A stretch of 64,000 nt of DNA from Dehalococcoidia bacterium (GCA_015661155.1 JACVQK010000011.1:2963-66962); one strand, 5' to 3'. Shown: positions 3,217 to 60,913, counted from the stretch's first letter. Numbers and translations are program-made. Notes: a model not told the origin generated them from the letters alone.

Positions 3217-3918
3217 ATGGAGCAACTCATCATCAAGGCCACGGGCATCTACAAGACCTACAACACAGGCAAGATAGAGGTGCACGCCCTCAGGGGCGTT
3301 GACCTGGCGGTCCGACGGGGGGAGATGGTGGCTATCATGGGGCCTTCCGGCTGCGGCAAGACGACGCTCCTCAACACCCTGTCGGGGCTCGATGACATCA
3401 ACCAGGGTGAGGTGATAATCGACGGTGCTCCCCTTCACACCATGTCGGACAGGAAGCGCACCCAGTACCGGGCCGAGAAGATGGGCTTTATCTTCCAGGC
3501 CTTCAACCTGCTGCCGGTGCTGAGCGCCGTGGAGAACGTGGAGCTCCCCTTGCTGCTGACGGGGGTGAAGTCGGGTCATGCCCGGCGGCGCGCGCTGGAG
3601 ACCCTGGCCCTGGTGGGTCTGGACGGGGAGGCGCCCAAGCGCCCCGCGGAGATGTCCGGCGGCCAGCAGCAGAGGGTGACCATAGCCCGGGCCCTGGTGA
3701 ACGAACCCGCCATTGTGTGGGCCGACGAGCCTACGGGAAATTTGGACAGCGAGACCTCTAACGAGATCATGGATGTGCTGTGCCGGATGAACAAGGAGAA
3801 AGGGCAGACCTTTGTGGTGGTCACCCACGACCTCGCCGTAGGCCACAGGGCGGACCGTATCGTGCATATGCGGGATGGTGTCATCGAGAGCGACCAGGCC
3901 AACCACGGGAGTAGATAA
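3217..3918 (+). CDS. ABC transporter ATP-binding protein (MacB/LolD-like)
   Basis: Walker [10 protein letters not shown], signature MSGGQQQRV, Walker [10 protein letters not shown] moved the start to ATG 3217 (5 nt after AGGAGG) because the first 20 track codons lie inside repeat A3. Confidence 0.9.
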
Positions 3919-16021: not shown

Positions 16022-17146
16022 ATGACATTGCCCACGGGGGAGGCCCATCCTTCCAGTGTGAGGGAGGCTTCCCACCCCAAAGTGGCGGTGGTATATACCA
16101 GGCCGGAGACGGTGCTGGAGGACATAGGCAGGGCCATGCGCCTGGCGGAGTACCAGGCCCACCTCCCGGCTAACATCCCCACCCTCCTCAAGATAAACAT
16201 CTCCTGGCAGCACTATTATCCCGCCTGCTCCACCTCTCCCTGGCAGCTTGAGGGGGTGATCAAGGCCATGAAGGAGGACGGCTACCGCGACCTCATCGCC
16301 GCCCACAACGGCACCGTGGTGGTGGACTCCTTCGAGGGGGAGGTGCGCAACAAGCAGAGGCCGGTGCAGGAGAAGTACGGTCTCCCCAGCGTCCACCTGG
16401 ACGTGCCCCCCAACCGGTGGATTCCCTACCAGCCCAAGGGTGAGATGCTGGTGCTGGACAAGATATTCCCCGAGGGCCTCACCATCCCGGAGATATTCCC
16501 CGGCAAGAACGTGCTCCACCTGCCCACCATGAAGACCCACGTCTTCACCACCATGACCGGGGCCATGAAAAACGCCTTCGGCGGCCTGCTGAACCGCAAA
16601 CGCCACTGGACCCACTCGGTCATCCACGAGACCCTGGTGGACCTCCTCACCATCCAGAAGGAGATACACCCGGGCATCTTCGCCGTTATGGACGGGACCT
16701 TCGCCGGGGACGGCCCCGGCCCCAGGGCCATGCGGTGGCACGAGAAGAACGTCTTCCTGGCCAGCGCCGACCAGGTGGCCATCGACGCCGTGGCCGCCAG
16801 GATGATGGGCTTCGACCCCATGTCCATCAAGTTCATCCGGCTGGCCCACGAGAGGGGCCTGGGCTGCGGCGACACCTCCCAGATAGAGGTGGTGGGAGAG
16901 GACATATCGGGGGTGAACTGGCGGTTTGAAGGCACAAAGAACACCCTTGCCAGCCGGGGCCAGAAGCTCATCTACTGGGGGCCTCTCAAGCCCCTGGAGA
17001 ACCTGCTGCTGAGGAGTCCCATAGCACCCTGGGCTTTCTTCGCCTCCAATTTGTATCACAACGAGTACTGGCTCCGCTTCATCGGCAATCGACGTGTCAA
17101 GGCGGCCATGAAAACGGGATGGGGCCAGCTCTTCCAGCGATATTAG
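16022..17146 (+). CDS. DUF362 domain-containing protein
   Basis: The conserved DUF362 core is LLKINISW...TMKTH..T..TGAMKN.FG.L......H......L.DL......MDG..AGDGPGP. I prefer ATG 16022 (after GAGGGA) to GTG 16007. The stop TAG 17144-17146 lies in the terminus of repeat A4. Confidence 0.8.
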   Translation: MTLPTGEAHPSSVREASHPKVAVVYTRPETVLEDIGRAMRLAEYQAHLPANIPTLLKINISWQHYYPACSTSPWQLEGVIKAMKEDGYRDLIAAHNGTVVVDSFEGEVRNKQRPVQEKYGLPSVHLDVPPNRWIPYQPKGEMLVLDKIFPEGLTIPEIFPGKNVLHLPTMKTHVFTTMTGAMKNAFGGLLNRKRHWTHSVIHETLVDLLTIQKEIHPGIFAVMDGTFAGDGPGPRAMRWHEKNVFLASADQVAIDAVAARMMGFDPMSIKFIRLAHERGLGCGDTSQIEVVGEDISGVNWRFEGTKNTLASRGQKLIYWGPLKPLENLLLRSPIAPWAFFASNLYHNEYWLRFIGNRRVKAAMKTGWGQLFQRY

Positions 17147-17293
17147 CAGGGTGTTGAAAACCCTTACGACCATCCCCCTGGCCACCTTCCTGGCCAGGAA
17201 GGTGGAAGAATTTGAATCTGGGGGACACCCCCAGACCCCCGCCAGAATGGGCTTCGCCCCCTCTGGACCCCCCTTTTCCCGCACCCTGCTAGG
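17144..17293. repeat. family-A repeat, copy A4
   Basis: Order T-P1(variant)-P2-P3. Ends are TAGCAGGGTG ... CACCCTGCTAGG. Confidence 0.85.
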
Positions 17294-22359: not shown

Positions 22360-22580
22360 CAGGGCGAGGCAGGGCAAGCCCTGCACCCACACTCTTCAGA
22401 GGCATCCATGGGCAGGCCTCACTCTAAGTCTGCCTAACTGGCTGCGGAAAAGGGGAGTACAGAGGGGCGAAGCCCCTTTGACGGGGGTCTGGGGGTGTCC
22501 CCCAGATTCAAGACTTACCCCCTTCCTGGCCAGGAAGGGGGCCAGGGGGATGGTCGAAAGGGTTTTTCAACACCCTGTTA
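22357..22580. repeat. family-A repeat, copy A5
   Basis: Order P5-P3-P2-P1-T. Its two ends contain the stop codons of the two convergent flanking genes (TAG 22357-22359, and TAA on the reverse strand at 22578-22580). Confidence 0.85.
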
Positions 22581-24674: not shown

Positions 24675-24823
24675 CAGCAGGCTGTTGAAAAACCCTTTCG
24701 ACCATCCCCCCTCCCCCTTCCTGGCCAGGAAGGGGGAGAGTTTAAATCCGGGGGACACCCCCAGACCCCCGTCAAAGGGGCGTTGCCCCTCTGTACTCCC
24801 CCTCTGTACATCAGCCTGCTAGG
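24675..24823. repeat. family-A repeat, copy A6
   Basis: Order T-P1-P2-P3, ending CAGCCTGCTAGG. It overlaps the last codons and the stop of the hydrolase gene. Confidence 0.85.
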
Positions 24824-25635: not shown

Positions 25636-25822
25636 GTGGGTGTTGAAGAACCCTCTTCGACCATCCCCTGCCCCCACACTCTCAACTGTTGCTGCACTGG
25701 TCTAACCATGTTCTACGATTCGTAAAGTGTGGGTCTGGGCTTAGCCCAGTCTGGGGGACACCCCCAGACCCCCGTCAAAGGGGCTTCGCCCCTCTGAGCA
25801 CCCCTTTTTCAACAGCCTGCCA
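25636..25822. repeat. family-A repeat, copy A7
   Basis: Order T(partial)-P5(half)-P4-P2-P3, ending TTTTTCAACAGCCTGCC. Confidence 0.8.
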
Positions 25823-25900
25823 AGTGGGTATCCTGTCCACGGTTCCCCGATACGAGGACTCTGGCGTATAATCTCTAGACCTATGTAAAGGAGAATGAGA

Positions 25901-39663: not shown

Positions 39664-39668
39664 CTCCT

Positions 39669-39814
39669 GACAGGGTGCTGAAGAAACCCTTCGACCATCC
39701 CCCTGGCCCCCTTCCTAGCCAGGAAGGGGGAAGGATTCATATCTGAGGGACACCCTCAGACCCCCGGCAAAGGGGCTTCGCCCCTCTGCACTCCCCTTTT
39801 CCAGCAACCTGCTG
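39669..39814. repeat. family-A repeat, copy A8
   Basis: Order T-P1-P2(variant CTGAGGGACACCCTCAG)-P3. Confidence 0.85.
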
Positions 39815-41779: not shown

Positions 41780-41930
41780 AACAGGGTGTTGAAAAATCCC
41801 TTCGACCATCCCCCTGTCCCCCTTCCTGGCCAGGAAGGGGGTAAATTTTGTATCTGGGGGACACCCCCAGACCCCACCAGAAGGGGCTTTGCCCCCTCTG
41901 GACTCCCCCTTTCCCTCACCCTGTGCTGAG
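41780..41930. repeat. family-A repeat, copy A9
   Basis: Order T-P1-P2-P3. Confidence 0.85.
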
Positions 41931-45000: not shown

Positions 45001-45693
45001 ACGCCGATAGGCACGCGGCTCCAGCGCCTCACCGAGGCGGCGCGGAGGCTGAAAGAGGCCACACCGGCCCTGGAGGACGCGGTGTCCACATGGAAGGGCC
45101 TCTCTTCCGTGGAAGCCTCCTCCCTGGCGGCTCGCACCGTGGAGACCGTCTCCACCGTCCTCGCGGCTTCGCCGGAGGTGGCGGAGCCTCAGCCCACGGT
45201 GGCCATCCCCGGCCAGACGAACTCCGTCCTGTGGGACACTCCCCGGGGCATCGGGGTTGTGGGCGCGGATGACGGAGCAGACCCGGCCACCCTGGCCGGC
45301 CTGGTCTTCGGGGCATTGCTGGCTGGCAACGGCCTGACCATGGCTGTCACCCCGGGGCCGGCGCGTGTGTCCCAGGTCCTGGCGGCTTGCCTCCACCAGG
45401 CAGGAGTCCCCAGAGACGTTCTGGCCCTGGCGCCGCGTGGCGTCTCTCCGGAGACGCTGGCCGCCGGCCCCATCCACTTCGCCGCGGTGGACCTGGCGCT
45501 GGAGCGGACGCGGGCCCTATACCGGGTTCTCGGCGCTACACCGGAGGAGGCGGGGCAGAGGTGGCTGAAGGCCCTGATCAGCGTCGGCGAAGGCCCACGC
45601 CCTGGGGAGCCAGGGTTCCTTCGGCGATTCGCCCTGCCCAAGGCCGTCTCCATCCGCACCCTGCGGCACGGCGCCGACCTGAAGCTGCTCTAG
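42085..45693 (+). CDS. putA: bifunctional proline dehydrogenase / L-glutamate gamma-semialdehyde (P5C) dehydrogenase, long form with an ALDH-like C-terminal domain
   Basis: PRODH motifs RLVKGAYWD and YVPVGDLITGMAYLVRRILENTSQAGFL. ALDH motifs EMGGKNA and GQKCSACSR. An extra C-terminal region of about 230 aa follows. I prefer ATG 42085 (after GAGGA) to 42025. The stop TAG lies in the terminus of repeat A10. Confidence 0.85.
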   Translation: MNAHPQEGVEARTQELGRVLYTRLQAHRPFMSEGPQDWLMALLMGDQALRNRLLRLVDVLAVFPDDLSGSQTASLFREYFGSDLRHLPGWSRLLLATARSPLVPSPLLAWLLRRGTRLVAGRFVVQSGPGSLENSLGRLAKEGRYPTFDLLGEAVLGEEEALRYRAGYLELLERLGRHPLARRRTPGGAPCLEVSLKLSSLSCQFNPADPEGTLRRVRPPLTELCLAAQARGIGVTIDAEQYRYRELAWHIFQETMSPGGPQVTAFARRRGTPFRVRLVKGAYWDQEVIVAEQAGWPVPVYRDKNATDLTFQRILGLLLETSPLTQVAVASHNVRAHAHAEAVREAVGLPEGAVEHQTLYGTLAGLSQALPQMGWVARDYVPVGDLITGMAYLVRRILENTSQAGFLARNRLREDAAELLRAPQPGPEDLSYRRPPHSTGFVNTPAPRLFDAVERERFQRALAETRARWGATYPLHLGSEVLTSSHLVPSCSPSHPDPSHPVGWVHLANLEETERAIAVTNTAAPLWAATSVAERAAIGLRAAEILRARKEEVGAWVVHEGGRTWPEALADVEEAIDHIAWNAHELHRLAHQIEESYRPLGVVACIPPWNFPTALAAGMTSAALMAGNAVILKSAGPTPIVAQALVQLLHEAGIPRDVLIHLPGPGSTVGARLVESPDVDMVAFTGSKEVGTWIHRTASRVALRKGGLKRVIAEMGGKNAIVVFPDADMDEAVSGILVSAFGHAGQKCSACSRVLAHRRVYGQLAHRLVEAARSLPVGPADDPGTIINPVIDSAARARIASYGEMARREGRVLLDALDSDQQGSLNIGPLIVEVEASKARTARVAQEEIFGPILTLTPFDTEEEAVSLANSTVYALTLGVFSRSPGTVARMVQSCRAANIYVNREITGARVGIEPFGGFQLSGTGPKAGSEEYLLAYLTRRSGFRAAGEPLQDSQGPNVGEGFPARVGTWELTPIGTRLQRLTEAARRLKEATPALEDAVSTWKGLSSVEASSLAARTVETVSTVLAASPEVAEPQPTVAIPGQTNSVLWDTPRGIGVVGADDGADPATLAGLVFGALLAGNGLTMAVTPGPARVSQVLAACLHQAGVPRDVLALAPRGVSPETLAAGPIHFAAVDLALERTRALYRVLGATPEEAGQRWLKALISVGEGPRPGEPGFLRRFALPKAVSIRTLRHGADLKLL

Positions 45694-45912
45694 CAGGGCG
45701 GGCCCTGCACCCACACTCAACTGTCGCTGCCATGGTCTGACCATGGTCCGACCGTGTTCTACGGTTCGTAAGGCGTGGGTCTGGGCCGTGCCCAGTCTGG
45801 GGGAGTGCAGAGGGGGCAAAGCCCCCTCTGACGGGGGTCTGAGGGTGTCCCCCAGATTCAAATTCTTCCCCCTTCCTGGTCAGGAAGGGGGCCAGGGGGA
45901 TGGTCGAATGGT
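45690..45912. repeat. family-A repeat, copy A10
   Basis: Order P5-P4-P3-P2-P1-T(partial). It starts with CTAGCAGGGC. Confidence 0.85.
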
Positions 45913-45941
45913 TGACACGAAATGACCCAGGATGGCATTAT
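45912..45941 (+). promoter_or_regulatory. candidate sigma70-type promoter for the tRNA-Leu/tRNA-Cys pair
   Basis: TTGACA (45912-45917), an 18-nt spacer, then CATTAT (45936-45941), about 60 nt upstream of the first tRNA. Supported by sequence pattern only. Confidence 0.3.
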
Positions 45942-46003
45942 GTATGCGTTCAGCTTGCCCTCGCGCGTCCCGATGCCCCTGGCGGCATCTGGAAGAGGGC
46001 CAT

Positions 46004-46090
46004 GCCGAGGTGGTGGAACTGGTAGACACGCGGTCTTGAGGGGGCCGTGGGTGCAAACCCGTAGGAGTTCAACTCTCCTCCTCGGCACCA
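46004..46090 (+). tRNA. tRNA-Leu (anticodon GAG), CCA encoded
   Basis: Hand-folded. Acceptor GCCGAGG/CCTCGGC. Anticodon stem CGGTC/GGCCG with loop TTGAGGG. Long variable arm. T arm AGGAG-TTCAACT-CTCCT. Discriminator A, followed by CCA. Confidence 0.9.
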
Positions 46091-46113
46091 AAAGTGGTAA
46101 AATACAGACCAGG

Positions 46114-46190
46114 GGCGACGTGGCCAAGTGGTCTAAGGCGGAGCTCTGCAAAAGCTCTATTCGGCGGTTCGAATCCGCCCGTCGCCTCCA
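46114..46190 (+). tRNA. tRNA-Cys (anticodon GCA), CCA encoded
   Basis: Acceptor GGCGACG/CGTCGCC. Anticodon stem GAGCT/AGCTC with loop CTGCAAA. T arm GGCGG-TTCGAAT-CCGCC. Discriminator U73, the known Cys identity element, followed by CCA. Confidence 0.9.
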
Positions 46191-46203
46191 GAGATGAAAA
46201 GCA

Positions 46204-46245
46204 AGGGCAGAAGGGGTACACTTCCTCGTTCTGCCCTCTTGATTA
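46204..46245 (+). terminator. candidate intrinsic terminator after tRNA-Cys
   Basis: Stem AGGGCAGAA / TTCTGCCCT (9 bp) with a 16-nt loop, followed by CTTGATT. The T-tract is weak. Confidence 0.35.
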
Positions 46246-46389
46246 GCAGGTTGCTGAAAAAAGGTGTGCAGAGGGGCGAAGCCCACTTTGCCGGGGGTCT
46301 GGGGGTGTCCCCCAGAGTCAAATTCTTCCCCCTTCCTGGCTAGGAAGGGGGCCAGGGGGATGGTCGAAGGGGTCTTTCAGCACCCTGCC
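46244..46389. repeat. family-A repeat, copy A11
   Basis: Order P3-P2-P1-T. It starts with TAGCAGGTTGCTGAAAAAA and ends with CAGCACCCTGCC. Confidence 0.85.
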
Positions 46390-46405
46390 ATGTAGTCATC
46401 GCCGT

Positions 46406-46488
46406 GCCCAGGTGGCGGAACGGTAGACGCCGCGGACTTAAAATCCGCTCTCCGAAAGGGGGTGTGGGTTCGATTCCCTCCCTGGGCA
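46406..46488 (+). tRNA. tRNA-Leu (anticodon TAA)
   Basis: Acceptor GCCCAGG/CCTGGGC, with U8. D arm GCGGAACGGTAGACGC. Anticodon stem GCGGA/TCCGC with loop CTTAAAA (anticodon at 46439-46441). Long variable arm. Discriminator A. CCA is not encoded. Confidence 0.9.
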
Positions 46489-46552
46489 TGAAGCGACTGC
46501 GTCGCGTATGTCAGAGGCTGCGCAAGCTGGTTGATTATGACTTGTAGAGAGA

Positions 46553-47353
46553 CTACCTGTTTCCATAAGGCTGTTCCAAATTAAGCCTCATGCTGCCGTC
46601 GGATAGATTGCCAGTAACTTGTGCTCGCCAGTCTCCGGAGATATGAGACGAGGTATGCACGGATTTGGCTTGGCATATCCATGTTGGAACGAAGGAGGAA
46701 TCTGTTTGGTGTGGGTCAAAGGTAAACCGAGGGCGACATGACTCAATCGATGTTTCAAGGGGTATAATCGTGGCCCTCCAGGCAATGAGGCGTACAAGGG
46801 TTTGTGTAGTGGGATTGCCCTCCACATAGCTTCTCAGAGAGTCAAGGTTGCGTACCTTAAGGTCGGCAAGGTAGCGGTTGACCAATGCTAGAGCTTCGGC
46901 CTCCGGTGAGGGCAGCGTGACTCCTCTGAACTCGACCACGTAGTTCTGAGAAAGGTGCTCGTTGCCTTCATCGTTCCTATCGAGGGCCAGGCTATATTCG
47001 CAAGCAGACCCCTCGGATATCCGTAGATTGTCCATTAGAGCGACGTCTTTGGATATCACGCTGAATGAGCCGTAAGGCTCGGCAAGTATCCTCAGACTAC
47101 TGTCACTAGGATTGTATACCGCTAGTTTCATGTAGCGTTCCCCGCTCGGATATTCAGTCCAACAGTACATCCCCTGTACAATCGCAGGCCCAAGACTTAC
47201 GGAAGTGAATGTTGAAGGCACAGGTATGCTAGGTATGAGGGGTGTCGGGGTGGGCTCTGGTGAAGTGCCACCAATATTTATCTGAATACATGCCTGCAGC
47301 GCAAATGCTGTGAGCAGAAACGTGGCCAAGCCGATGAGACGCAAGGCAACCAT
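46553..47353 (-). CDS. hypothetical lipoprotein (orphan, lower GC)
   Basis: 266 aa. Signal peptide MVALRLIGLATFLLTAFALQAC with a Cys at the cleavage-type position, followed by a Pro/Thr linker. I recognise no family. Composition is visibly AT-richer than the flanks. Confidence 0.65.
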   Translation of the reverse strand: MVALRLIGLATFLLTAFALQACIQINIGGTSPEPTPTPLIPSIPVPSTFTSVSLGPAIVQGMYCWTEYPSGERYMKLAVYNPSDSSLRILAEPYGSFSVISKDVALMDNLRISEGSACEYSLALDRNDEGNEHLSQNYVVEFRGVTLPSPEAEALALVNRYLADLKVRNLDSLRSYVEGNPTTQTLVRLIAWRATIIPLETSIESCRPRFTFDPHQTDSSFVPTWICQAKSVHTSSHISGDWRAQVTGNLSDGSMRLNLEQPYGNR

Positions 47354-47464
47354 GGTGACGCTAGTTTACTACCACCACGGTGACGCGTGAAGCGGCAGCC
47401 CGGCGACATGACGCTGCCGCTGAAGACTCACAAGCCTCCGCACGCCGAACATCCCCCAATCCCC

Positions 47465-48379
47465 TCACCCCCCTATCAGGCTCCTGACCACCGGGATAAC
47501 CAGGGTCAGGGTGAAGGTACTGGCGAGGGTGCTGGTCACCACCGCGTTGGTGACGAACCTGGGATTGGCCCGGAACTCCGTGGCAAGGATGGTGGTGAAA
47601 ACGGCCACGGGCATGGCACACACAATCACAACCACGCTCTGGGAGAGAGCGTCCAGGTCAAAGAGCAGGGTCGCGCCGTAGGCCAGGGGCGCCGACACCA
47701 CCAGGCGTACCAGAAGGGCAGCAGCCAGGCTGAGCAGGCTGTCCAGCCGCAGCTCTCCCGCCAGCTGGCATCCCAGAACCACCAGCATGACGGGAATGGC
47801 AGCCTGGGACAGCAGCTTGATGGGCTGGAGGATGACAAAGGGTAGCTCAACGCCCAGCAGCCTGACCAGCAGCGCGGCGATGATCCCGTAGATGGCCGGC
47901 AGCTTGAAGACCTGTTTGAGAGACTCCATCCTGTTCATCTGGCTCCCGGCGGCGATGAAAACGCCCAGGGACTGCCCCATGATGGCCTGGGTCACAAAGA
48001 CTATCACCCCCACGGCCAGCCCCTCCTCGCCAAAGGCCAGCAGCAGAACGGGCAACGCCAGGTTCCCGGAGTTGGGAAACGCCGTGGACAGCATGAAAGC
48101 GCCCCCCATGGCGCGGTCGTGGCGCAGGACCTTGCTGAGGAGGACGCTGATTACCATTATGAGCGCCGTGGTCACCACCATGGCACCCACAATCCTCACG
48201 GATGCAGAGGCAGGTATCCTCTGCTGCACCAGTAACGTGAAGATGAGGGCCGGGGTGAGGAGATAGAGGGTTATCTGGTTCACAGGCCCCACGGGTATCT
48301 TTCGCCACCGTTGAAACCCCGCGGCAATTATAGCCACCAGGAAAACCGGCATGGTTACGTTAAGAAAGACATCCAGCAT
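47465..48379 (-). CDS. AEC (auxin efflux carrier) family transporter
   Basis: 304 aa with about 10 TM segments and the typical N-terminus MLDVFLNVTMPVFLVAIIAAGF. Confidence 0.8.
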   Translation of the reverse strand: MLDVFLNVTMPVFLVAIIAAGFQRWRKIPVGPVNQITLYLLTPALIFTLLVQQRIPASASVRIVGAMVVTTALIMVISVLLSKVLRHDRAMGGAFMLSTAFPNSGNLALPVLLLAFGEEGLAVGVIVFVTQAIMGQSLGVFIAAGSQMNRMESLKQVFKLPAIYGIIAALLVRLLGVELPFVILQPIKLLSQAAIPVMLVVLGCQLAGELRLDSLLSLAAALLVRLVVSAPLAYGATLLFDLDALSQSVVVIVCAMPVAVFTTILATEFRANPRFVTNAVVTSTLASTFTLTLVIPVVRSLIGG

Positions 48380-48423
48380 ACAGTGACCCCTGTTTTGCCG
48401 CTTTGCTTAGCTATCATCGCCGT

Positions 48424-48507
48424 GCCCAGGCGGCGGAACGGCAGACGCCGCGGACTTGAAATCCGCTCCCCGAAATGGGGGTGTGGGTTCGATTCCCTCC
48501 CTGGGCA
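48424..48507 (+). tRNA. class II tRNA with a UGA (serine) anticodon on a leucine-type body; near-duplicate of tRNA-Leu(TAA)
   Basis: The acceptor, D arm, anticodon stem, T arm and discriminator A are the same as 46406-46488. The differences are C8 for U8, one D-loop base, the anticodon loop CTTGAAA (anticodon TGA at 48457-48459) and a few variable-arm bases. The upstream flank ATCGCCGT is also shared. Confidence 0.75.
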
Positions 48508-48509
48508 CT

Positions 48510-49742
48510 CTACCTCTTGGCGGCGGGGGCCACGGTCAGCCAGAGCAGGAGAGCGGCCAACCCGGCCAGGGCCGCCCCGAAGAAGAAGGGGACGCTGGGG
48601 TTGAAGGTCTGCCATAGAGCGCCAGCGATGAGGCTGGCAGGGAAGGCGGTGATGCCCACCGCCGTGTGGTAGAGGCCGTAGGCCGAACCCCGCCGCTCGG
48701 CGGGCACCAGGTCGGAGACCAGGGCCCGGGCCACCCCCTCGGTGGCAGCGTAATACACTCCGTAGGCCAGGAAAAGGAAGACCACCTGCCATGCGGCCCC
48801 CGCCAGGGCAAATCCCAGGTAGATGAGGGCATAGGCGACCCACCCCCCCAGGATGACCCGCCTCCGCCCGATGCGGTCGGACAGGATGCCCAGGGGCACG
48901 GACAGGGAGGCATACACCAGGTTGAAAGCTGCCAGCAGCAGCAGGATGTAGACAAGGGGAAGCCCCAGGTTCTGGGCCCGCAGGATAAGGAAGGCGTCGC
49001 TGCTGTTCCCCAGGGTGAAGAGCATCATGATACCCAGGAAGAGCTTGAAGGAGACAGGGAAAGGAGAGACGGCGCGCGTGGCGGGGCCAGCCTTACCGGG
49101 CAGGGCAGCAGGTCGGGTCTCGTGGACCAGGAACCACAGCACCAGCATCGCCAGGATGGCGGGCACCGTCCCCACCAGGACGATGGTGCGGAAGGCGTCC
49201 TCCCGCAGGTCCAAGCCCCCATGCTGCACCAGGAGGACCACCAGCGCTGCTCCCAGCAGGCCCACCACTGCCCCGGCGGTGTCCATCGCCCTGTGGAGGC
49301 CGAAACTGCGTCCCCGCTCCGCGGGCAGGGTGGAATCCGCCAGCAGGGCGTCCCGGGGAGCGGTGCGCACCCCTTTGCCCACCCGGTCGGTGAAGCGCAG
49401 CAGCAGCAGCAGACCCCAGCTCGTGGCCAGGTAGAAGAAGGGCTTGGCCAGGGTAGAAAGGCCGTAGCCCGCCAGGGTAAGCTCCTTACGCCTCCGCAAC
49501 CGGTCGCTCAGCCAGCCGCTGGGGAAGCGCATCAGGGCGGCGGTGGAATCGGCGATGCCCTCGATGAAGCCGATGATGGCGGTGCCCACTCCCAGCACGT
49601 TGGCCAGGAAGAGGGGCAGAATGGTCACGATCATCTCGCTGGAGACATCGGTGAGGAAGGACACCCAGCCCAGGAAGAAGACGTTGCGGCTGACGCCGAA
49701 GTAGCGGCGGGACGGGGTGGAAGAGGGGGTAGTTTGCTCCAT
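48510..49742 (-). CDS. MFS transporter
   Basis: 410 aa with 12 TM segments. MFS motif A-like GWLSDRLRRRK. Confidence 0.85.
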   Translation of the reverse strand: MEQTTPSSTPSRRYFGVSRNVFFLGWVSFLTDVSSEMIVTILPLFLANVLGVGTAIIGFIEGIADSTAALMRFPSGWLSDRLRRRKELTLAGYGLSTLAKPFFYLATSWGLLLLLRFTDRVGKGVRTAPRDALLADSTLPAERGRSFGLHRAMDTAGAVVGLLGAALVVLLVQHGGLDLREDAFRTIVLVGTVPAILAMLVLWFLVHETRPAALPGKAGPATRAVSPFPVSFKLFLGIMMLFTLGNSSDAFLILRAQNLGLPLVYILLLLAAFNLVYASLSVPLGILSDRIGRRRVILGGWVAYALIYLGFALAGAAWQVVFLFLAYGVYYAATEGVARALVSDLVPAERRGSAYGLYHTAVGITAFPASLIAGALWQTFNPSVPFFFGAALAGLAALLLWLTVAPAAKR

Positions 49743-49897
49743 GGCACCTCCTTGGCAAAGACTCCGGGGCCGATTGTATCACAAACAGAGAGCAGAGGAG
49801 CCACGCGCCAGCATCTCCCGCCCACCGTGGCAGCTTGTCTACTGAGGGCAACACCGCTACACTGTTCTCACCCATCCGGAGCCTGAGAGAGAGTCCC

Positions 49898-50940: not shown

Positions 50941-51065
50941 ATAGGCCGAAATCTGGGTCTGTGAGATGTGGGTTTGGGCTAAGCCCAGTCTGGGGGACAC
51001 CCCCAGACCCCCGTCAGAGGGGCTTCGCCCCTCTGCACACCCCATTCTTCAGCAACCTACTAGGG
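50895..51065. repeat. family-A repeat, copy A12
   Basis: Order P5-P4-P2-P3, ending CAGCAACCTACTAGG. Confidence 0.85.
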
Positions 51066-51353: not shown

Positions 51354-51430
51354 CCAGCAGGATGATGAAAAACCCTTTCGACCATCCCCCTGCACCCTTC
51401 CTGGCCAGGCAGGGCACGCCCTGCCTCCTA
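51354..51430. repeat. family-A repeat, copy A13 (short)
   Basis: T arm, then half of P1 fused to a P5-like hairpin (CCAGGCAGGGCACGCCCTGCCTCC). Its terminal CTAG supplies the ALDH stop codon. Confidence 0.8.
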
Positions 51431-58627: not shown

Positions 58628-60913
58628 ATGAGCAACGCGAAGAGCGTCGTATACTTCGAGGAAGTAGGGAAGCGGGACATATCCATCGTGGGAGGGAAGG
58701 GCGCCAGTCTGGGTGAGCTGTACCAGGCTGGCATCCCAGTTCCCAAAGGCTTCGTGGTCACGGCCCAAACGTATTACGGCTTTCTGGAAGGGGCCAAGCT
58801 GGAGAGCCATATCCAGAGTGCCATGGACGGCCTGGACTGCAACGACTCCGAGGCCCTGGCGAAAGCCTCGCAAAGGGTGAAAGAGGCCATCAAGGGCGCT
58901 CCCTTGCCCAAGACGATAGCCCAGGAGATCGTGAAGGCATACCGTTCCCTGGGACAGGGGCCCGTGGCGGTCCGCTCCTCAGCCACCGCCGAGGACCTGC
59001 CCGACGCCTCCTTCGCAGGACAGCAGAGCACCTTTCTCAACATCGTGGGGGATGACAACGTGGTACGGGCGGTGCAGGAGTGCTGGGCCTCCCTCTTCGA
59101 GCCGCGGGCCATCTTTTACCGATGGGAGCAGGGATTCGACCACCTCAAGGTGGGTATCGCGGTGGTGGTGCAGCGCATGGTGCAGTCCCAGACCTCCGGA
59201 GTCCTGTTCACCGTCGATCCCATCTCCAATAACCCCCGTAGGATCACCATAGAGGCCGTCCTCGGCCTGGGGGAGGCCATTGTCTCCGGCGCCATCACCC
59301 CGGACTACTACGTGGTGGACAAGGAGAACGTGGACATCGTAGAGAGGAAGCCCGCGCTCCAGACGCGAATGCTGGTCCGCAATCCCAAGATAGCCCTGGA
59401 CTCCGAAGATGCCAACGTCTGGGTAGACGTCGCCCAGAGAAAGCAGGGGAGCCAGAAGCTCACCAACGACCAGATCGTAGCCCTGGCCCACATGGCAAAG
59501 AGAATCGAGAAGCTGTACGACTCCCCCCAGGACATCGAGTGGGCCCAGGAGGATGGGAATCTCTACATCGTTCAGAGCCGCCCCATAACCACCCTATCAG
59601 AAACCCCGAACTCCTTCAAAGACATCCTGAAGAGGACCAGCGCCACGGTCCTGGTCCGGGGCGCCAGCGCCAGCCCCGGCATAGCCCAGGGCCCCGTCAA
59701 GATCATCCGAGACGCCTCGGTCATCCACCTGGTGGAGAAGGGTGACATACTGGTCACGGAAATGACTACCCCGGACTTTGTGCCCGCCATGAAGAAGGCC
59801 GCCGCCATCGTCACCGACAAAGGGGGCCGCACCTGTCACGCGGCCATCGTCAGCAGGGAGCTGGGCGTGCCCTGCATAGTGGGCACAGAGACAGCCACCC
59901 ATGTCCTCCACCAGGGGCAGAAGATCACCGTGGACGCCTCCCAGGGGATAGTCTACCAGGGATACCTGGACCTGGCACCGAAGGAGGAACTAGCCCCCCA
60001 TCGGCGTCTCAAGACCACTACCCGAGTGTACGTTAACCTGGCCGACCCCGAGCTGGCCGACGCGGTGGCCGCCAAGCAGGTGGACGGCGTGGGACTGCTG
60101 CGGGCGGAGTTCATCATCCGCAACACCATAGGGGTACACCCCTTGCACGCCCTCAGCCAGGGCAAAGGACAGGAGTGGACCGACAAGCTGGCAGTCGGCC
60201 TGGAGAAGTTCTGCGCCCCCTTCTACCCCCGCCCCGTGGTGTACCGCACCACCGACTTCAAGACCAACGAGTATCGCCATCTCGAAGGGGGGAAGGAGTA
60301 CGAGGAGGAGGAGGAGAACCCCATGATGGGCTACAGGGGCTGCTCCCGCTACGTCCGGGAGCAGGAGGCCCTCCGCCTGGAGGTGGAGGCCATCTTGAAG
60401 GTCTACTCGCAGTACGACAACCTCCACGTGATGCTCCCCTTCGTGCGCACGCCCGAGGAGCTGGCCCTGGTCAAGGAGGTGCTGGATTCCCAGGGACTGA
60501 GGCGGGACGGGGGACCCAAGCTGTGGATGATGGTGGAGATCCCCTCCAACATCATCCTCATGGACCAGTTCATAGACATGGGTCTCGATGGCATATCCAT
60601 CGGCTCCAACGACCTCACCCAGCTCATCCTGGGGATTGACCGGGACAACGAGAAGCTGGCCAACCTCTTCGACGAGCGGCACCCCGCGGTGCTGTGGGCC
60701 CTGGAGAGGGCCATAACCATCGCCAGGGCCAGAGGCATCACCTCCTCCATCTGCGGCCAGGCCCCGTCCTTCTTTCCAGACCTCACGGAGAAGCTGGTCA
60801 GGTGGGGGATAAGCTCGGTCTCCGTAAGCCCCGACATGATAGACCAAACCAGGGACATCATCGCCGTGGTAGAGGGAAAACTGGGCAAGCTTCCCCCTCA
60901 GGATGAATCGTAA
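58628..60913 (+). CDS. ppsA: phosphoenolpyruvate synthase (pyruvate, water dikinase)
   Basis: N-terminal ATP-grasp domain (VGGKGASLGEL), the phosphohistidine domain GGRTCHAAIVSRELGVPCIVG, and the C-terminal PEP-utilizing TIM barrel (..NPMMGYRG.., GIS.GSNDLTQ). Confidence 0.95.
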   Translation: MSNAKSVVYFEEVGKRDISIVGGKGASLGELYQAGIPVPKGFVVTAQTYYGFLEGAKLESHIQSAMDGLDCNDSEALAKASQRVKEAIKGAPLPKTIAQEIVKAYRSLGQGPVAVRSSATAEDLPDASFAGQQSTFLNIVGDDNVVRAVQECWASLFEPRAIFYRWEQGFDHLKVGIAVVVQRMVQSQTSGVLFTVDPISNNPRRITIEAVLGLGEAIVSGAITPDYYVVDKENVDIVERKPALQTRMLVRNPKIALDSEDANVWVDVAQRKQGSQKLTNDQIVALAHMAKRIEKLYDSPQDIEWAQEDGNLYIVQSRPITTLSETPNSFKDILKRTSATVLVRGASASPGIAQGPVKIIRDASVIHLVEKGDILVTEMTTPDFVPAMKKAAAIVTDKGGRTCHAAIVSRELGVPCIVGTETATHVLHQGQKITVDASQGIVYQGYLDLAPKEELAPHRRLKTTTRVYVNLADPELADAVAAKQVDGVGLLRAEFIIRNTIGVHPLHALSQGKGQEWTDKLAVGLEKFCAPFYPRPVVYRTTDFKTNEYRHLEGGKEYEEEEENPMMGYRGCSRYVREQEALRLEVEAILKVYSQYDNLHVMLPFVRTPEELALVKEVLDSQGLRRDGGPKLWMMVEIPSNIILMDQFIDMGLDGISIGSNDLTQLILGIDRDNEKLANLFDERHPAVLWALERAITIARARGITSSICGQAPSFFPDLTEKLVRWGISSVSVSPDMIDQTRDIIAVVEGKLGKLPPQDES

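Follow-up and report, generated by a model that had tools for sequence, protein, structure and literature searches.

A 64,000-nucleotide stretch of a Dehalococcoidia bacterium genome (GCA_015661155.1 JACVQK010000011.1:2963-66962), the whole of which we call the window, carries a tRNA gene in which a leucine-type class II body bears the serine anticodon UGA. This gene, tRNA2, is a paralogue of a tRNA-Leu(UAA) gene, tRNA1, that lies 2 kb upstream, and it alone of the pair has C in place of the invariant U at position 8. Because this C8 is unique, no promoter-like site precedes the gene, its placement is antisense and its product is predicted to misfold, tRNA2 is probably disabled. We favor the reading that it is an inactive or strongly weakened relic paralogue, and we hold that reading, which is drawn from sequence, with about even confidence.

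Both genes were called by ARAGORN (46405-46489, Leu with UAA; 48424-48508, labelled Ser with UGA) and matched the Rfam tRNA model (Table 1). The sites that the initial annotation had assigned to the anticodon, to its central G and to the C at position 8 agree with both programs, and the structure fits its description of a leucine-type class II body with a UGA anticodon, paralogous to the Leu(UAA) gene 2 kb upstream. With lengths of 83 nt for tRNA1 and 84 nt for tRNA2, the genes are identical at 79 of 84 columns, so the near-identity that had been noticed, with its shared arms and A73, is real. The five differing columns (tRNA1/tRNA2) are U8/C8, D-loop GGUAG/GGCAG, A35/G35, variable-stem CUCC/CCCC and an extra variable-loop U in tRNA2. 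The copies have in common the GCCCAGG acceptor, A73, C2-G71, the anticodon stem and the T arm with its U50.U64 mismatch, and CCA is encoded in neither. The repeat pair as a whole is 94 nt long and 94.7% identical, far above chance (blastn E=2e-36); these direct repeats (46396-46488 and 48414-48507) bracket two genes, the open reading frame ORF266 and an AEC-family transporter gene. They include an identical upstream flank, as had been claimed, which runs to 10 nt and not to the 8 nt first given. Weaker homology reaches to about position -37 (46224-46247 against 48389-48411); the local alignment score of this flank is 24, compared with 16.6+/-3.1 for shuffled sequences, 19 of 500 of which reached that score. 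The alignable flank is ~80% identical over 25 columns, as against 94% for the tRNA bodies.

The unusual bases recur in other assemblies. A pattern scan of JGI metagenomes for this D arm and anticodon stem returned 59 loci, and exactly one of them (L132, Ga0206225_1012741) combines C8 with G35; it is identical to window 48353-49785 at 1432 of 1433 positions and repeats tRNA2 base for base. A contig in ENA (L158, ERZ27247315, k141_773595) covers window 46201-49785 with both tRNAs and differs by 3 single-nucleotide polymorphisms (SNPs) in 3585 nt, all of them outside the tRNA genes, with the five differences between the copies preserved. Since three independent assemblies give an identical tRNA2, neither C8 (48431) nor G35 (48458) stems from an assembly error. 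The window comes from a metagenome-assembled genome (MAG) and holds two 94-nt repeats at a distance of 2 kb, a setting in which collapse of near-identical repeats might have put a wrong base at one or both positions, leaving two ordinary Leu(UAA) genes misread. That explanation is extremely improbable, given that the JGI and ENA assemblies come from other projects and reproduce tRNA2 exactly despite one and three SNPs elsewhere, and that the ENA contig spans both copies and keeps them distinct.

Comparison with relatives shows which of the differences are derived. The nearest genomes by the MFS transporter that follows tRNA2 (73-75% identity), L083 (GCA_016190505.1) and L087 (GCA_016190535.1), share the order Trp-Leu(GAG)-Gly-Cys-Leu(UAA), then a variable insert (HicAB or a 239-aa ORF), then the convergent MFS gene. 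A UGA tRNA is absent from the syntenic locus of both, and each has one Leu(UAA) gene; tRNA2 is therefore lineage-specific. More distant MFS relatives (L084-L086, L088, L089) have no tRNA near the gene and are uninformative. A closer relative, L163 (Logan SRR22388051), has the order AEC-ORF266-ORF116-Leu(UAA), with an ORF266 homologue at 62% amino-acid identity. In its Leu(UAA) gene the 3' strand of the acceptor and the U50.U64 mismatch of the T stem, both derived, match the window copies; its contig stops before tRNA position 8 and before any second-copy site. U8 is found in L083 and L087, and A35 in these two and in L163, so tRNA2 has the derived base at both positions, C8 and G35. In the variable stem, CCCC (L083, L087, L163 and tRNA2) is the ancestral state, and the CUCC of tRNA1 is derived and still pairs as G.U. 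The extra variable-loop U of tRNA2 is probably derived, the nearest relatives having four-base GCAA loops. D-loop position 20 is ambiguous, with C in L083, L087 and tRNA2 and U in L163 and tRNA1. Derived C26 and the GAAA variable loop are shared by the two window copies alone and are absent from L163; the split from L163 is therefore older than the duplication, or else than the latest conversion of one copy by the other. The initial annotation had tRNA2 duplicated from the Leu(UAA) gene. The paralogy stands; either copy may be the original, as tRNA2 keeps the ancestral CCCC and both copies flank the block. We had at one point taken tRNA2 for the ancestral copy on the strength of GGCAG and a CT trailer, and withdrew this because the closer relative, L163, has GGTAG. 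The tRNA-Gly(GCC) that stands between Leu(GAG) and Cys in L083 and L087, and their upstream tRNA-Trp, are lacking at the window locus, which implies that the tRNA cluster was remodelled more than once.

The body of tRNA2 is that of a leucine tRNA. In Escherichia coli, leucine identity lies in A73, the chief determinant, and the core elements A14, A15:U48, G18G19 and A20a, and not in the anticodon or variable arm; the U8:A14 pair is crucial for the leucyl-tRNA synthetase (LeuRS) of A. aeolicus, and U8:A14 and A14 matter for leucylation of A. aeolicus, E. coli and human mitochondrial tRNALeu (PMC9976931). In bacterial tRNASer, G1-C72 and G2-C71 are conserved and G73 is an antideterminant for LeuRS, and the C2-G71 of tRNALeu is an antideterminant for E. 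coli seryl-tRNA synthetase (SerRS) (PMC9976931). tRNA2 has A73 (48507), and in the sequence GCGGAACGGCAGACGC and the final variable-region U it keeps A14, A15:U48, G18G19 and A20a. What it lacks of the leucine features is the U8:A14 pair, through C8, and a leucine anticodon (NAG or YAA), in place of which it has UGA. Its class II variable arm is 16 nt long with a 4-5 bp stem, and L083, L087 and L163 have Leu(UAA) genes with closely similar bodies. Of the serine features it has the UGA anticodon, the long variable arm and G1-C72, and it is missing G2-C71 and G73. Canonical serine tRNAs look different: those for Ser(GGA) and Ser(CGA) on L131, a contig with the same Leu(UAA) arms and the source of the only two such genes in the fetched loci, have a GGAGAGG acceptor, G73 and 17-19-nt variable arms. 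Because A73, C2-G71 and the leucine core are kept and the serine marks are absent, tRNA2 is a leucine-type molecule and, going by these elements, should carry leucine and not serine if it is charged at all. The ARAGORN label "Ser" reflects the anticodon alone. The initial annotation had reasoned likewise on identity, and its argument agrees with the published determinants (A73 and the D-loop elements for leucine; C2-G71 and no G73; PMC9976931) and with the serine tRNAs of L131. ARAGORN also called a 74-nt tRNA-Ser(GCU) at 3522-3595, a false positive with no Rfam match, a poor cloverleaf, no long variable arm, no D-loop GG and no T-loop TTC.

C8 sets tRNA2 apart. U8 is present in all 58 other same-arm tRNA genes of the JGI scan. 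Among ~157 tRNAs in all fetched loci, counted after correction of ARAGORN's 1-nt-early gene starts, the only real departures from U8 are tRNA2 and a UGA twin in L048, which has G8. In ViennaRNA, a competing fold that pairs C8 with G27 is more stable than the tRNA2 cloverleaf by 9.5 kcal/mol; the corresponding gap is 3.2 kcal/mol for tRNA1 and 0.2-6.9 across 60 real Leu(UAA) genes. When C8 and G35 are both reverted, the gap falls to 5.8 kcal/mol. In this model both derived bases would stabilize the competing misfold, which we take as supportive. The context of the gene points the same way. A crude E. coli-type consensus found no promoter-like site before tRNA2 and a single match in 45600-48800, upstream of the tRNA cluster that ends in tRNA1. 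tRNA2 is also antisense to three co-directional genes (MFS, Mem_trans and ORF266). That tRNA2 encodes no CCA carries no weight, since CCA is missing from the Leu(UAA) genes of relatives too.

UCA usage, to which the initial annotation had drawn attention, shows no avoidance of the codon. In 41 ORFs of the window (18,094 codons), UCA makes up 51 of 1007 serine codons (5.1%), the share expected for the GC content. The phosphoenolpyruvate (PEP) synthase gene at 58628-60913 has UCA as codon 118, which is the second serine of an RSSATAED motif that is invariant in solved homologues. With UCA at this invariant serine, the codon still means serine and has not been reassigned, and an efficient Leu-inserting reader of UCA would be harmful. 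Three other UCA positions (PutA 102, PutA 147 and PEP synthase 324) were dropped as evidence, their serines not being conserved. UUA accounts for 12 of 2077 leucine codons (0.6%), so rare that a second Leu(UAA) gene is dispensable.

Leucine bodies with a UGA anticodon are not confined to this genome. We searched one genome per species, from 185,579 species, for a CUUGAAA loop behind a Leu-type D arm; the window's own genome was not among the matches. The scan gave 82 loci, 29 of which are real A73 Leu-type tRNAs with G35, scattered over many phyla. In L048 (Thermoanaerobaculia) and L013 (Bacillota), Leu(UAA) and UGA twins lie within 2 kb of each other, and we count both as independent analogues in favor of the relic reading. 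The order in L048 (2912-5665) is Gly-Cys-[Leu-body UGA copy]-1.8 kb-Leu(UAA), an independent analogue of the window arrangement. Its UGA twin is clearly degenerate and more decayed than tRNA2, with G8 and a TCCGAGA T loop. Leu-body/UGA tRNAs related to one another are found in five alphaproteobacterial genera (Maritimibacter, Methylocystis, Nitratireductor, Sphingobium and Jiella); this family has U8, A73 and an encoded CCA, and shows compensatory changes in 6 of 24 pairs. To judge from these genomes, the pattern recurs, usually sporadically, and is occasionally maintained.

The initial annotation had left three outcomes side by side. Of these we favor a decaying or silenced copy, place a Leu-charged decoder of serine codons second and put a new serine isoacceptor third. 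We infer the lack of expression, the loss of function and the following order of events. The ancestral locus would have been a cluster of tRNA genes with a single Leu(UAA) at its end; beyond it came a spot with variable inserts and then the convergent MFS gene. In this lineage the two-gene block of ORF266 and the AEC gene now lies between two copies of the tRNA with its immediate upstream flank. tRNA1, beside tRNA-Cys, would have stayed behind the cluster promoter and retained UAA, and its derived changes appear conservative: the variable-stem C-to-U that gives G.U and possibly D-loop position 20, the direction of which is ambiguous. The redundant tRNA2, with no promoter-like site of its own and antisense among co-directional genes, would have taken two critical hits, A35G, turning its anticodon into UGA, and U8C, removing the U8:A14 core pair. 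Inactive or strongly weakened, it would escape the selection that acts against a dominant mistranslating tRNA, and any molecules that did mature would be leucylated, not serylated.

Several points weigh against loss of function. All four stems of tRNA2 pair, the sole mismatch being the U50.U64 that tRNA1 also has, and pairing in the variable arm is no worse than in tRNA1. Three assemblies that show SNPs elsewhere agree on the sequence of the gene. The higher identity of the tRNA bodies relative to the flank is a faint sign of earlier constraint on the two copies, or else of gene conversion. The folding energies leave out tertiary contacts and modifications, the promoter consensus is of E. coli type and Chloroflexota promoters are poorly known, and derived changes that number only three or four give no statistical power for relaxed constraint.

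Some of these points would suit a tRNA2 that is transcribed at a low level, charged with leucine and in competition with the canonical tRNA-Ser(UGA) at UCA and possibly at other UCN codons, a possibility that we entertain tentatively as the main rival of the relic reading. The result would be low-level Ser-to-Leu replacement, with C8 as an attenuator that keeps the damage tolerable, and this too we regard as unlikely without dismissing it. The leucine set (A73, A14, A15:U48, G18G19, A20a) is retained, and LeuRS ignores the anticodon (PMC9976931). An engineered tRNALeu(CGA) reads TCG as leucine in recoded E. coli at a modest fitness cost (PMC13596443), and leucine, serine and alanine anticodon variants mistranslate in yeast and human cells (PMC11028032). 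Intact stems, a sequence stable over three assemblies and a body better conserved than its flank fit as well. Known natural mistranslators are damped by changes at invariant positions, G33 and A33 among them (PMC11415595), and the compensatory changes in the alphaproteobacterial family indicate that such hybrids can be maintained. C8 itself speaks against active mistranslation, in that it abolishes a tertiary pair needed for LeuRS recognition and for tRNA stability. So do the lack of a promoter-like site, the antisense position within a run of genes, the absence from L083 and L087, the unavoided UCA at a serine of an invariant catalytic motif, and the lack of a dedicated synthetase or editing factor nearby. 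We consider it distinctly doubtful that tRNA2 is at once expressed, leucylated and used by the ribosome, with UCA read mostly as serine and sometimes as leucine and C8 attenuating the effect.

It is improbable, in our view, that tRNA2 is on its way from a leucine tRNA to a serine isoacceptor that SerRS charges at least in part, and yet all three changes taken as derived in tRNA2 do point from leucine toward serine: G35 in decoding, the extra U, which would lengthen or reshape the variable arm in the direction of SerRS recognition, and C8, which would weaken LeuRS recognition. E. coli SerRS reads mainly the shape of the variable arm, and yeast tRNALeu gains a U.G pair and accepts serine in vitro when one U is inserted in its variable-arm loop (PMC9976931). 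The inserted U of tRNA2 could pair with a loop G, making CCCCG/UGGGG, and alloacceptor remoulding by duplication and anticodon change is established in mitochondria and in eukaryotic nuclei (PMC4783518, PMC3923123). Set against this, tRNA2 has the C2-G71 antideterminant and lacks both G73 and the near-universal G2-C71 of bacterial tRNASer (PMC9976931), and eight changes were needed to bring an E. coli leucine tRNA to serine identity (Normanly 1992, cited in PMC9976931). The serine tRNAs of L131, with their own acceptor, G73 and longer variable arms, show what the end point looks like beside the same Leu(UAA) arms. The "direction" of the three changes is a post-hoc reading, and the copy is unseen in relatives with a readable locus. 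About as improbable is a tRNA2 kept for a role other than decoding, either as a tRNA-shaped signal for processing or termination between the convergent or co-directional genes or as an att-like direct repeat left by integration of the block. tRNA genes are classic integration sites. The two copies exactly bracket the block, the spot 3' of tRNA-Leu varies among genomes (HicAB, a 239-aa ORF, or ORF116+ORF266+AEC), and tRNA2 is separated by 2 nt from the MFS stop codon and by 44 nt from the start of the AEC gene. The block and its surroundings contain no integrase or recombinase, the repeat comprises the whole tRNA and its 5' flank in place of the usual 3' segment, and nothing speaks for RNA processing. 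Since a passive repeat needs no function, this explanation largely collapses into that of a relic, which we continue to prefer.

The order in the window is Leu(GAG)-Cys-tRNA1-[ORF266, AEC transporter]-tRNA2-MFS (Table 1). ORF266 has an LQAC lipobox, as in a lipoprotein-type signal, and homologues numbering 3 among 5.8 billion proteins. Its GC content at third codon positions (GC3) is 0.54, compared with 0.81-0.88 in the neighbors, and it is either a fast-evolving or a foreign gene at a tRNA insertion hot spot. It carries 5 of the window's 51 UCA codons; a link between these codons and tRNA2 was rejected, because the atypical composition of ORF266 accounts for them. Relatives of the AEC protein at 76-77% identity occupy unrelated contexts in other Chloroflexota (L159-L162), and the scan of three of these loci (L159-L161) showed no tRNA; the MFS gene in L159 is unrelated. 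Judged by ORFs and Pfam matches, the insert consists of ORF266 and Mem_trans only, with no integrase or recombinase in or near it, and no aminoacyl-tRNA synthetase or editing factor lies near tRNA2, whose neighbors are transporters, PutA, PyrF and Cmk.

A GC-rich intergenic repeat of ~145 bp, with internal hairpins and inverted ends (GCTGAAA...TTTCAGC), is present in at least 10 full or partial copies in the 64 kb. It looks like a miniature inverted-repeat transposable element (MITE) or a repetitive extragenic palindromic (REP)-like element. One copy separates tRNA-Cys from tRNA1, and another directly precedes the promoter of the tRNA cluster.

Table 1. Coordinates of the features discussed; positions are those of the window unless a locus is named.
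Feature	Position	Strand	Description	Support
tRNA2	48424-48507	+	anticodon UGA, leucine-type class II body, C8	Rfam RF00005, 46.4 bits; ARAGORN
tRNA1	46406-46488	+	tRNA-Leu(UAA), bona fide paralogue	Rfam RF00005, 56.0 bits; ARAGORN
Anticodon UGA of tRNA2	48457-48459	+	G35 = 48458, derived base	
C8 of tRNA2	48431	+	replaces invariant U8, breaks U8:A14 tertiary pair	
Upstream flank TCATCGCCGT	46396-46405	+	10 nt, identical to 48414-48423	
tRNA2 upstream flank	48389-48423	+	48414-48423 equals tRNA1 flank; 48389-48411 ~80% alignable to 46224-46247	
tRNA-Leu(GAG) and tRNA-Cys(GCA)	46004-46187	+	upstream cluster members, same order in L083 and L087	
Sigma-70-like promoter match	45912-45941	+	TTGACA-18-CATTAT with TG, upstream of Leu(GAG)/tRNA cluster	
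ORF266	46553-47353	-	putative lipoprotein, near-orphan, in the block between the tRNA copies	no Pfam match
AEC-family (Mem_trans) transporter	47465-48379	-	second gene of the block; start 44 nt from tRNA2	Pfam PF03547
MFS transporter	48510-49742	-	convergent with tRNA2, stop codon 2 nt from tRNA 3' end; anchor gene in L083 and L087	Pfam
~145-bp dispersed repeat copy	46248-46392	.	splits tRNA1 upstream flank; edges are the best excision boundaries	
~145-bp repeat, other copies	39668-39813, 17146-17291, 22440-22577, 45802-45911, 24677-24821, 41782-41906			
~145-bp repeat, further copies	50989-51062, 25750-25823, 332-403, 494-558, 51357-51414			
Alphaproteobacterial Leu-body/UGA locus	L025 5792-6433			
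Alphaproteobacterial Leu-body/UGA locus	L043 7849-7937			
Alphaproteobacterial Leu-body/UGA locus	L047 2189-2276			
Alphaproteobacterial Leu-body/UGA locus	L053 5793-6437			
Alphaproteobacterial Leu-body/UGA locus	L075 1939-3596			

The alphaproteobacterial set may be a maintained, mobile module of non-canonical tRNAs. A search of PLSDB plasmids with the tRNA-to-tRNA segment of L075 gave no match to the module, only generic tRNA similarity. In L025, L053 and L075, ~500 nt downstream, there is an Arg-like tRNA body whose anticodon arm is degenerate. Homologous genes for an IS1595-type transposase are found upstream in L043, L053, L075 and L054, the last of which is a sixth alphaproteobacterial locus. 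Six Leu-body tRNAs in long-read MAGs (L010, L022, L037, L051, L073, L078) of Thermoleophilia, Chloroflexia and Actinomycetes have an 8-nt anticodon loop, CUUGAAAA, which is either a real expanded loop or a homopolymer error. UGA tRNAs with a Leu-type D arm also occur on viral contigs (L149 3918-4002, L156 8285-8370, L153 5969-6053). The giant-virus tRNA in L153 has G73, so the D-arm motif alone is no proof of leucine identity.

The class to which tRNA2 belongs is already known, from isotype prediction disagreement (IPD) or hybrid tRNAs (tRNAscan-SE 2.0, PMC8450103), eukaryotic anticodon shifts (PMC3923123) and remoulding (PMC4783518); in the literature searched we found no report of a bacterial Leu-to-UGA case of this particular kind. 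As in tRNA2, the body and anticodon of IPD and anticodon-shifted genes belong to different isotypes, and such genes arise by duplication and a single anticodon substitution and are read as possible "code-breakers" or as decaying copies. The surveys concern eukaryotic multigene families, whereas tRNA2 is a bacterial two-copy case, from Leu(UAA) to (UGA), with U8C in addition. Mitochondrial alloacceptor remoulding likewise proceeds by duplication and then an anticodon mutation that changes the codon family (PMC4783518). There, however, the product is functional, the ancestral gene is lost and the remoulded tRNA is conserved in descendants; here Leu(UAA) persists, serine marks are absent, and relatives with a readable locus lack tRNA2.

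Closest in composition is the engineered tRNALeu(YGA) of recoded E. coli, which also joins a leucine body to a serine anticodon that reads TCR; LeuRS charges it and the ribosome inserts leucine at serine codons (described in PMC13596443, from earlier work of the same group). That tRNA is phage-derived and highly expressed in a strain stripped of most TCR codons, whereas tRNA2 is natural, has C8 and belongs to a genome that uses UCA. Among natural systems, tRNAProX reportedly works with a dedicated prolyl-tRNA synthetase (ProRS) paralogue. Found in Streptomyces and Kitasatospora, it resembles tRNA2 in combining one identity with the anticodon of another family, and some natural mistranslators have changes at invariant loop positions that damp their activity (PMC11415595). 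The tRNAProX family is conserved across genera, unlike tRNA2, which is not conserved in relatives and has no paralogous synthetase near it. The nev-tRNAs of nematodes have class II bodies with a long variable arm and non-leucine anticodons, and are charged with leucine in vitro. They share with tRNA2 a leucine-type body under a foreign anticodon, but they are eukaryotic, conserved within a clade and equipped with Gly or Ile anticodons.

For genome annotation, tRNA2 is a warning: callers that go by the anticodon, such as ARAGORN, label it tRNA-Ser, and it would then falsely fill the UCA-decoding slot of the tRNA inventory. If the gene is inactive, it would be a clean, datable snapshot of a redundant bacterial tRNA gene dying. 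If, on the contrary, tRNA2 works, bacteria would have a natural tRNA placing leucine at a serine codon. To our knowledge, leucine insertion at a serine codon by a tRNA has until now been shown in bacteria by engineering only. Were UCA indeed read at times as leucine here, tRNA2 would, together with the 29 Leu-body/UGA tRNAs from the scan of 185,579 species, among them the alphaproteobacterial family with its compensatory changes, exemplify a natural path to Ser-to-Leu sense-codon ambiguity that recurs in bacteria. An active tRNA2 would thus bear on the onset of sense-codon reassignment and on the tolerance of free-living bacteria for mistranslation.

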